From: Candidatus Heimdallarchaeota archaeon B3_Heim
GTDB taxonomy: Archaea > Asgardarchaeota > Heimdallarchaeia > Hodarchaeales > Hodarchaeaceae
Assembly: GCA_003144275.1 (NCBI GenBank)
Contig: NJBF01000023.1
Location: 30,001-62,000 of the forward strand
Direction: 5' to 3'
DNA length: 32,000 bases
Position numbers and translations under genes: made by a program. This document shows positions 14,812 to 16,674 of this stretch, one piece after another (positions within the stretch are counted from its first letter, which is position 1; each line of letters starts with the position of its first letter). The notes below the pieces were generated by a model, which saw only the letters and a program-made list of their open reading frames with translations, did not search any database and was not told where the DNA came from.

Positions 14812-16674
14812 TTACCGTCGTATTTTTGGATCCATTACATCTCTCAATCCATCGCCAATAAGATTGAAGGCTAGCACGATTAGGAAGATAACTAGGCCTG
14901 GGAAGAAAACAAGCCATGGTGCTTGAATAAAGTACTCTCTTCCGTCAGCAATCATTCTTCCGAGTTCTGCATCACCTGGATTTGCACCAAATCCAATGAA
15001 GCTTAAACCTGCTGCAGTAAGCACAACTCCACCTAAATCTAACGTGGCTGCTACAAGTAGCGGATAAAGGCTATTTGGTAATACATGTCTGAAAATTATA
15101 CGTGTATTACTCAATCCTACAGCTCGGGCAGCTTCGACATATAGCTTATTTTTTTCGGATAATACTTGGCCACGGGCAATTCGAGCATAACCAGCCCACC
15201 ACACAACAATTAAGGCAATAGACAGATTGAACATATTCTTCCCAAGAGCGGCGGCAATGGCCATAGCCAATATTAATCCTGGAAAAGCAAAGAAAACGTC
15301 AGTAATCCGCATCATCAGGTTATCTACCCATCCACCGTAATACCCAGCAATAGCACCAATTATAGTTCCTACTACAAGTGCCCAAGTAACAACCCAAATA
15401 GCTAGCGTCAGGTCTAACTGGAGTGCCCAGATACATCGACTGAAAATATCACCACCGATGGCATCTGTTCCAAATATTAAAGGTCTACCGTCAATCTCTG
15501 TATACTGCTCTGCGTATGTTACTTCACCTTGGCTAGAAAATACGATCAGGTCACTCATATTATCCTGATTAAAATCACACCAAAGGAAATCGACACCAGG
15601 TACTTCTTCTAAAACTGGAAAAGAGAAAGTCACATAAAGACTATCTTTATCCATTTCTAGAAAGTTTGGTGAGAGTTTTAAGCCAATTGAGGTATAATAA
15701 TAGTAATGACCAGAATCGAAAATAAGGATCATATCCCAACTCTCTGTTGGATTTATGTGTAAGATATCTACTCTGATTGAACCTGTACCTAACCCTTCTA
15801 ATGGCAATACTTTGTCGTAGACGTCTAGTGGAGCGTCTTCATTGAGCTCAAGTTCCCATATTTCATGACGCATCATTGAAGCGTCATTTATGTAAACGTA
15901 AACCTTGAAATCAGTTGAACCTACAACCAGATCGATCATATTATTGCTATCGCGATCGAAGTTAACAAGTGTAGGGTGAGCTTGTCCCGGAAAATGAAGA
16001 ATACTGCCAGTACTATTTCGCACTAAGGAAAAATCGGTCCAGTTTGCGTTGTTGGGCGTTCCTTGATTTATACTCCTGTAGAGATATCCATCATCACCAC
16101 CGATCATTAAGTCGGTAACATTGTCACGATTCATATCTCCTGTAGTAGGACTCACTCGTGTAACATTTTCAGGTAATGTTGGAAACTGGTATGAAGTATT
16201 TAAAACCCATTCGTTTTCTCCAGCTTCTTCGCCAATATTCTCATAATAGAGTAATTGGCTATCGTCAGTCCCTAAAAGAACGTCTATTTTTGTATCGTTA
16301 TTTAAATCAACAAGCCAATTCCGAACGAGAATATCTTCATCAAGTTGAAATTGGTCTGAAAGATCTGAATAATCTGTCCAAAGGAGATATTTTCGTGTAT
16401 CAATTGCCCCAGGTGGTTCTTGTTTTAGAATTCGTCCTTCCAAAGGATCCAGAAGAAACTCTTTGGGTCCATACGGGGTAATCGTAGGAGCCAATAGAGC
16501 GATAATCACTAAAAATGATATTGTCCCAAAACCGAAAAGAAAGAGAGGACTCTTTCGTAAGAGGGAAATACTGTGTCTAATTTCTTTTCCCCTTGTTCTT
16601 AAAGTTTCTCGGAAGCTAAATATTTCTGAAGGTACATCTTCATCAAGCATATCTAATTCATAACCAGTTGTCAT
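14812..16674 (-). CDS. oppC: OppC/DppC-type ABC permease with a large inserted FG-GAP/VCBS repeat domain
   Basis: OppC N-terminal TM, FGTDAIGGDIFSR, GGWVDNLMMRITDVFFAFPGLILA, EAA motif YVEAARAVG, and C-terminal PWLVFFPG. Start set at ATG 16674 by SD AAGGAGGA; the track's 16755 overlaps oppB. Confidence 0.92.
   Translation of the reverse strand: MTTGYELDMLDEDVPSEIFSFRETLRTRGKEIRHSISLLRKSPLFLFGFGTISFLVIIALLAPTITPYGPKEFLLDPLEGRILKQEPPGAIDTRKYLLWTDYSDLSDQFQLDEDILVRNWLVDLNNDTKIDVLLGTDDSQLLYYENIGEEAGENEWVLNTSYQFPTLPENVTRVSPTTGDMNRDNVTDLMIGGDDGYLYRSINQGTPNNANWTDFSLVRNSTGSILHFPGQAHPTLVNFDRDSNNMIDLVVGSTDFKVYVYINDASMMRHEIWELELNEDAPLDVYDKVLPLEGLGTGSIRVDILHINPTESWDMILIFDSGHYYYYTSIGLKLSPNFLEMDKDSLYVTFSFPVLEEVPGVDFLWCDFNQDNMSDLIVFSSQGEVTYAEQYTEIDGRPLIFGTDAIGGDIFSRCIWALQLDLTLAIWVVTWALVVGTIIGAIAGYYGGWVDNLMMRITDVFFAFPGLILAMAIAAALGKNMFNLSIALIVVWWAGYARIARGQVLSEKNKLYVEAARAVGLSNTRIIFRHVLPNSLYPLLVAATLDLGGVVLTAAGLSFIGFGANPGDAELGRMIADGREYFIQAPWLVFFPGLVIFLIVLAFNLIGDGLRDVMDPKIRR
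15487..16404 (-). other. Inserted extracellular domain with about five FG-GAP/VCBS-like repeats (beta-propeller-like)
   Basis: Repeats LVDLNNDTKIDVLLG, TGDMNRDNVTDLMIGG, VNFDRDSNNMIDLVVGS, LHINPTESWDMILI (degenerate) and WCDFNQDNMSDLIVF, each followed by a Tyr-containing beta strand. Confidence 0.8.

Follow-up and report, generated by a model that had tools for sequence, protein, structure and literature searches.

What does a folded repeat domain do in the middle of an importer's permease? The question is raised by oppC, a gene in a 32,000-nucleotide stretch of DNA (positions 30,001 to 62,000 of contig NJBF01000023.1, assembly GCA_003144275.1) from Candidatus Heimdallarchaeota archaeon B3_Heim, a member of the Hodarchaeales; this whole stretch is referred to here as the window, and coordinates are window positions unless another locus is named. 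A preliminary description, made from the letters of the window alone, had read the gene as an OppC permease with an FG-GAP/VCBS repeat domain fused into the loop between its first two transmembrane segments (TM1 and TM2), a reading on which the Pfam matches and the alignment to the Escherichia coli permease DppC now agree. We are very confident that the gene encodes the OppC subunit of an ATP-binding cassette (ABC) importer of the peptide/nickel class, OppABCDF, in which the TM1-TM2 loop is replaced by a propeller bearing calcium-loop motifs, and that this architecture is conserved in Asgard archaea, with a patchy distribution. The OppC/DppC family and the FG-GAP/VCBS repeats are each well known; the novelty lies in the propeller-in-OppC architecture, for which no describing paper was found in the literature on FG-GAP/propeller domains and ABC importers or Asgard archaea.

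The permease core and its inserted domain

The protein is laid out as follows, with residues numbered throughout in the 647-residue frame P0001 (numbers in the 620-residue protein are smaller by 27).

14812..16674, minus strand: oppC, 620 amino acids, ATG at 16674-16672 and stop codon at 14812-14814 (open reading frame and translation)
16459..16560, minus strand: OppC_N region with TM1, residues 66-99 (Pfam PF12911, 26.8 bits against a cut-off of 23.9; aligns to TM1 of DppC)
15481..16410, minus strand: inserted FG-GAP/VCBS propeller, residues 116-425, ~310 amino acids, between the conserved 'PP' and 'GTD' (Pfam and predicted model)
14815..15480, minus strand: permease core, residues 426-647, with the GTD segment, TM2-TM6 and the EAA motif (BPD_transp_1; DppC alignment)

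All three expected domains, OppC_N, FG-GAP_3 and BPD_transp_1, score above their Pfam cut-offs. BPD_transp_1 covers residues 463-647 over the full length of its profile (positions 1-184 of 184; 125.1 bits against a cut-off of 26.4, E = 3.5e-36), and the EAA coupling motif (EAA...G...I.LP) lies intact at residues 541-560 (15076-15135). Residues 75-105 align to residues 35-65 of E. coli DppC (8z1v_B), which form TM1, and residues 426-646 align to DppC 79-299 (183 bits) with a core that is ~45% identical, in line with the earlier description of intact permease motifs. The stretch from TM1 to the GTD segment measures 13 residues in E. coli DppC and ~320 in the Heimdallarchaeota OppC, and the insert boundaries obtained here (15481-16410) nearly coincide with the 15487-16404 proposed before. 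The segment N-terminal of TM1 is rich in Arg and Lys, and this basic tail is expected to be cytoplasmic.

The inserted residues belong to the FG-GAP/VCBS repeat family. FG-GAP_3 (PF13517) reaches 32.0 bits in the whole protein (residues 150-217) and 37.7 bits in the isolated insert, where it matches three stretches (cut-off 26.9), and the classical FG-GAP profile (PF01839) reaches 19.9 and 23.0 bits, respectively (cut-off 22.1). Modelled with AlphaFold2 from a family alignment of 17 rows, residues 100-440 are predicted to be all-beta, with five four-stranded groups (predicted local distance difference test score, pLDDT, 87.9; predicted template modelling score, pTM, 0.86). A model of the whole protein was set aside for the orientation of the propeller, its mean pLDDT being 58 and its membrane helices poorly modelled. 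Foldseek against the AlphaFold DB clusters retrieved VCBS/FG-GAP proteins (E = 1e-14, template modelling score, TM-score, 0.70), and a shape search of the ESM Atlas retrieved bacterial FG-GAP/FG-GAP_3 clusters (TM-score 0.69-0.73, root-mean-square deviation ~3 Å), including small free propellers of 256-282 amino acids; the nearest structural neighbours in the Atlas were bacterial FG-GAP proteins linked to the type IX secretion system (T9SS) or to dockerins. The beta-propeller fold put forward in the preliminary description is thus recovered by a confident model and by two fold searches, and the model predicts a ring of five blades, not seven.

The blade number bears on the likeness to integrin alpha chains that had been suggested for the insert. 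Among solved structures, Foldseek retrieved integrin alpha heads, CRTAC1, the PVL lectin, the TcB propeller, ITFG2 and BBSome propellers, at E ~1e-5 and a TM-score of ~0.4; the low TM-score against the solved seven-bladed heads follows from the five blades of the insert model. The insert shares with the FG-GAP/VCBS propellers (integrin alpha head, PVL lectin, CRTAC1, TcB and bacterial VCBS proteins) the repeat family, the calcium-type loops and, for the predicted ones, a fold at a TM-score of ~0.7; it differs from the integrin and PVL propellers in having five predicted blades instead of seven, and from all of them in being embedded in a polytopic permease and not in a secreted or type-I protein. 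Pfam finds no thigh or calf domains in OppC, there is no beta-subunit context, and TM1 and TM2 flank the propeller directly. Because it is predicted to form five blades and has neither leg domains nor a beta-subunit partner, the insert is not an integrin-type head, and the integrin likeness stands at the level of the repeats and is restricted to it by the blade number. The eukaryotic flavour of an "integrin-like" domain should therefore not be over-read, the repeat family being common in bacteria and the blades here being five.

An exhaustive VIA-align pass placed other five-bladed propellers at the top, namely those of glycoside hydrolase (GH) families GH43, GH62, GH32 and GH130 (Z 13-16.6, root-mean-square deviation ~3.5 Å over ~245 residues, 4-13% identity). 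Since GH43-type propellers are the best matches of this all-against-all comparison, the insert could be a diverged five-bladed hydrolase of the GH43/GH62/GH32 kind that trims substrates at the mouth of the transporter, a reading that we hold to be highly improbable. The structural match is explained by the shared blade number, the identity to the matched chains is no higher than 13%, and a Pfam scan of the insert at E-values up to 10 returned only FG-GAP_3, FG-GAP, BBS7 and BBS2_Mid and no glycosidase family; moreover, the conserved columns are the Asp/Asn of the calcium loops and structural Gly/Pro, with no central acid triad among them.

The insert comprises five repeat units of ~60 amino acids each, spaced 57-66 residues apart, with the following loops.

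16282..16308, minus strand: blade 1 calcium-loop motif DLNNDTKID, residues 150-158, conserved in most close relatives
16111..16137, minus strand: blade 2 calcium-loop motif DMNRDNVTD, residues 207-215, the best conserved in the family
15931..15957, minus strand: blade 3 calcium-loop motif DRDSNNMID, residues 267-275, D275 invariant
15733..15759, minus strand: blade 4 degenerate loop, residues 333-341, only the final Asp, D341, conserved
15550..15576, minus strand: blade 5 calcium-loop motif DFNQDNMSD, residues 394-402 (sequence motif)

The DxNxDxxxD loop binds Ca2+ in integrin-type repeats. Five D-x-N-x-D repeats had been counted originally; the five units are there and four of the five blades carry a strict DxNxDxxxD loop, but that of blade 4 is degenerate. 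The loop of blade 2 is conserved in nearly all relatives (D207, D211 and D215 are invariant in the family alignment A1), and those of blades 1, 3 and 5 in the closer ones. All seven N-X-S/T sequons reported earlier are present in the insert, a mild enrichment over shuffled inserts (2.9 +/- 1.6 sequons, with 2% of shuffles reaching seven), and several of them are retained in 6-11 of 15 relatives; the conservation of N153 is ambiguous because this residue also lies inside a calcium loop.

Authenticity and distribution of the fusion

The longest open reading frame at the locus (14812-16755, 647 amino acids, P0001) begins upstream of the start adopted here, which is preceded by a ribosome-binding site.

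16681..16687, minus strand: ribosome-binding site AGGAGGA, 6 nucleotides 5' of the oppC ATG (read from the sequence)

The stop codon of oppB (16690-16688) directly precedes this AGGAGGA, and in the family alignment the relatives start at the position aligned with ATG 16674. Because the spacing of the ribosome-binding site and the aligned starts of the homologues agree, the start at 16755 was dropped and ATG 16674 is almost certainly the real start of oppC, which makes the originally proposed span of 14812-16674 exact. A plus-strand reading of the same interval was discarded, as it yields stops only and the gene lies on the minus strand.

A permease joined to a repeat protein might be the product of chimeric metagenome assembly or of a mis-called open reading frame, and the source is indeed a metagenome-assembled genome (103 contigs, 94% complete, 3.9% contamination). 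However, the gene is a single open frame with its own ribosome-binding site, the fusion recurs in ~30 independent clusters, and Logan contigs from two studies, one of marine sediment and one of a cold seep (X1 records 2 and 4, X2 records 15 and 21), span both junctions without joints or indels; none of the sequencing runs contained at least half of the sampled words. Because contigs of two independent studies bridge both junctions, chimeric assembly is excluded: the fusion is genuine, and the chance of an artefact is negligible. The concern over the insert boundaries raised at the outset is likewise answered by homologues that align end to end (11 to 28 of them, 37-84% identical) with the same insertion site.

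A search seeded with the insert retrieved 11 proteins that combine OppC_N, FG-GAP_3 and BPD_transp_1 and are 31-77% identical over the insert. The named ones come from Heimdallarchaeota or Hodarchaeales, where they are annotated as 'ABC transporter permease subunit', in line with the Asgard host suspected from the sequence. More distant members, P0066, P0072, P0140 and P0200, emerged when 1.8 billion representatives were scanned exhaustively with HMMER, and a search seeded with the core added P0313 and P0314, labelled Thorarchaeota, and P0315 and P0316, labelled Promethearchaeota, with the same domain order. Altogether, 33 retrieved sequences match both core and insert, which leaves ~30 distinct fusion clusters once the query gene and duplicate cluster members are set aside. 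All named fusion clusters are Asgard (Hodarchaeales/Heimdallarchaeota, Thorarchaeota and Promethearchaeota) and their annotation is generic ("ABC transporter permease"), and the oppB-oppC-oppD-oppF context is the same on other contigs. Among the matches listed for the insert, the bacterial FG-GAP proteins have no permease core. The preliminary description knew of no OppC with this architecture; no published description came to light either, although the protein is not unique, with its relatives spread over three Asgard lineages.

The full-length profile matched 6 of 400 species genomes of the phylum, five of them in the same genus (22 genomes, query included) and one in a neighbouring family of the same order; the distribution of the propeller-bearing OppC is therefore patchy. 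The query genome itself has three OppC genes, and the presence of the propeller in only one of them suggests a specialization of one transport system.

Several further candidates were set aside. Weak matches to the insert in other Asgard families (L007-L012) proved to be ordinary FG-GAP proteins without a permease core, and the longer Asgard OppC proteins (427-580 amino acids) mostly carry N-terminal extensions, not loop insertions. Four such Asgard homologues, from Thorarchaeota and others (P0367, P0323, P0325 and P0328), have ~130-290 amino acids before TM1, and P0328 has an additional ~140 residues between OppC_N and the core. Elaboration of Asgard OppC seems to be concentrated in its N-terminal part.

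Outside the Asgard archaea, the clusters nearest to the whole protein in a feature search of the ESM Atlas were Thermoplasmatota permeases of ~750 amino acids and a bacterial OppC-type cluster of 585 amino acids, 12% of whose members carry PSII_BNR, a BNR-type propeller; with feature scores of 0.85-0.87, all below 0.9, these are leads only. Should they hold, a propeller-bearing OppC would be a recurrent theme and not an Asgard peculiarity. As for expression, metatranscriptome contigs from sediment (X12) cover parts of oppD and oppC within 14500-16170, including the propeller-core junction (15350-15552), at 90-99% identity. They hint that the gene of a close relative is transcribed; they cannot show transcription because the library may contain DNA and the contigs come from a relative.

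Expected surface position and candidate roles of the propeller

The role of the propeller has to be considered together with the other components of the importer.

16688..17893, minus strand: oppB, partner permease, 401 amino acids (Pfam BPD_transp_1_N and BPD_transp_1; alignment to DppB 8z1v_A)
13737..14795, minus strand: oppD, ATPase (Pfam ABC_tran and oligo_HPY)
12700..13773, minus strand: oppF, ATPase (Pfam ABC_tran and oligo_HPY)
9962..12109, plus strand: oppA, family-5 substrate-binding protein, 715 amino acids (Pfam SBP_bac_5, 198 bits)

The genes are ordered oppB-oppC-oppD-oppF, and oppA is convergent with this operon. The composition is that of the characterized OppC/DppC systems (DppC 8z1v_B, E. 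coli OppC 8z21_B, Mycobacterium tuberculosis OppC 8j5q_C): the permease has the same OppC_N, a full BPD_transp_1 and the EAA motif, and is likewise accompanied by OppB, two oligo_HPY ATPases and a family-5 binding protein. The difference lies in the outward TM1-TM2 loop, which holds ~320 residues with a folded propeller here and no extra domain in the solved homologues.

In the DppABCDF structure, the TM1-TM2 regions of DppC and DppB lie in the periplasm, the binding protein sits as a cap over the two permeases, and the scoop motif in the TM1-TM2 loop of DppB contacts DppA (PMC12136057). Homology with this solved topology leads us to expect the propeller on the cell surface, beside the face at which OppA docks, and the extracellular placement first proposed from the sequence thereby gains structural footing. 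In its own sequence, OppA combines a signal peptide with a Thr-rich linker and a tail of the PGF-CTERM type. At its C-terminal end (~11960-12106) the Thr run TTTTTTTVTATTEETTTE leads into PGF, then a hydrophobic helix and finally KRRR; the consensus of the Asgard homologues of OppA likewise has PGF near the end. Because of the signal peptide, linker and tail, OppA appears to be a stalk-tethered surface protein with an archaeal sorting signal of the PGF-CTERM type.

We tentatively propose, as the likeliest of the roles considered and at somewhat less than even chances, that the propeller is an accessory platform for the docking or retention of OppA; the architecture and this function, taken as one statement, likewise fall short of being probable. 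The propeller would project from the cell surface next to the face where the binding protein caps OppB and OppC, OppA would be kept nearby by its long Thr-rich stalk and PGF-CTERM anchor, and the propeller would hold or orient OppA at the translocator, in a role parallel to that of the P2 loop of MalF for MalE or of the DppB scoop.

The contact of MalF P2 with MalE is known from the MalFGK2-MalE structures, and in importers of the GlnPQ and OpuA type the substrate-binding domains are fused to the permease. MalF P2 and the DppB scoop are both extracytoplasmic elaborations of type-I permease loops that contact the substrate-binding protein (for the scoop, PMC12136057), and the scoop occupies the TM1-TM2 loop of the partner subunit, equivalent to the site of the propeller in OppC. 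The P2 loop is Ig-like and the scoop helical, whereas the domain here is a beta-propeller; the subunit and the size differ as well, and the contact with OppA is weakly predicted. The GlnPQ/OpuA type resembles the present case in having an extracellular domain covalently built into the membrane subunit, but the fused domains there are binding proteins, while here OppA is separate and the propeller has a different fold. MalF P2, the DppB scoop and the permease-fused binding domains are thus the nearest functional precedents, and none of them is a propeller or resides in OppC.

Prediction of the complex between OppA and the propeller gave a median score of 0.46 (runs of 0.01, 0.48 and 0.46) against 0.01 for the best control, with a partner pLDDT of at least 72 and a contact agreement between runs of at least 0%. 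In the calibration of the procedure, the mark was attained by 58 of 80 solved complexes and by 2 of 110 mismatches; scores up to 0.60 account for just 7 of the 80 solved complexes and for both of the mismatches that passed. By the procedure's own verdict the score counts as weak support, which nudges the odds toward docking.

Several observations weigh against a docking role. One of the three runs scored 0.01, the prediction returned no OppA-propeller interface, and by the calibration a score this low is, unless backed by a strong prior, wrong more often than right. The relative G064 has no oppA in the 16 kb fetched around its operon. Finally, free-standing paralogues of the propeller exist outside any ABC operon, which means that the module can act without a transporter, and they fit a general surface-binding role at least as well as docking. 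Two relatives of the same genus encode such proteins, of 392-419 amino acids, each composed of a signal peptide, a propeller (~40% identical) and a C-terminal transmembrane anchor.

L015:2370-3629 and L016:3591-4769, plus strand: free-standing propeller genes, outside ABC operons

A third free-standing propeller protein, P0213, is annotated in the Hodarchaeales. The paralogues adjoin unrelated genes, namely B12-binding/MTTB methyltransferase genes and a gene for a ParA-like ATPase. In a tree of the propeller domains, which is unrooted and has some long branches, they occupy two separate positions amid the OppC inserts (support 87/86 and 93/90), so that the module has moved between the free and the inserted state, in one direction or the other.

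Membrane-anchored paralogues of this kind, away from transporter operons, are what one might expect if the propeller were a lectin or ligand-capture module whose Ca2+ loops take hold of glycans, glycopeptides or further polymers, from the surface or the environment, independently of OppA, so as to concentrate substrate near the importer or to anchor the cell to a source of nutrients. FG-GAP/VCBS propellers are typical of secreted binding proteins, the neighbours of the insert include T9SS- and dockerin-linked proteins, the PVL lectin and integrin heads, four calcium-loop motifs are retained, and the organism comes from marine-sediment or cold-seep communities. We nonetheless rate ligand capture as rather unlikely: no ligand site can be named, the calcium loops in FG-GAP blades frequently have a structural role only, the tight and conserved placement beside the OppA docking face suggests a role linked to the transporter, and the weak OppA-propeller score slightly favours docking.

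The same paralogues, as type-I anchored surface proteins, are also in keeping with a structural element of the envelope that touches the S-layer, neighbouring surface proteins or another cell and positions or stabilizes the transporter with no direct part in the transport cycle. The domain is large, outward-facing and bears seven sequons, and its patchiness even within one genus (5 of 22 genomes) is that of a dispensable accessory. Yet generic surface display by insertion into a permease loop that is essential would be costly, and the conservation of the fusion among Asgard lineages at identities as low as 37% speaks for a function tied to the transporter, which makes a purely structural element unlikely in our judgement.

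In the usual picture of type-I ABC importers, the permeases are bare and the binding protein stands apart from them, and MalF P2, the DppB scoop and the fused binding domains have each been informative on how binding proteins dock and are emptied. An OppC whose equivalent loop holds a folded propeller would be a further, undescribed solution. The Asgard archaea, the archaeal lineage closest to eukaryotes, have no periplasm to confine binding proteins, and if the propeller docks OppA or captures a ligand, it would offer a testable model of how surface-tethered binding proteins are managed in archaea. More broadly, and with doubt prevailing, these loci may represent an Asgard importer class with a permease-borne, Ca2+-dependent propeller receptor that clamps stalk-tethered OppA or captures glycosylated ligands; if true, binding proteins would be managed, or substrates captured, in a way that has not been described in a type-I importer.

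The partner permease and neighbouring genes

The partner permease OppB, with 401 amino acids compared with 306-339 in the solved homologues, likewise appears from its alignment to have an enlarged outward face: its extra residues comprise ~13 in the scoop region and ~30 between the segments aligned to DppB 156 and 180.

Elsewhere in the window, an open reading frame of 1188 amino acids (23703-27269, plus strand) matches no Pfam family at E-values up to 0.001. A lone ATPase of the OppD/OppF type (387 amino acids, ABC_tran and oligo_HPY; 7918-9081, minus strand) is encoded ~900 bp upstream of oppA on the opposite strand, without an adjacent permease gene. Directly upstream of the opp operon lies a gene for a 926-amino-acid permease of the FtsX/MacB type (19034-21814, minus strand), separated from oppB by two small open reading frames without a Pfam match (18177-18767 and 18727-19023). 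The FtsX-oppBCDF order is retained in G064 (L017), and in L013 an FtsX gene with two ATPase genes lies beside the operon.

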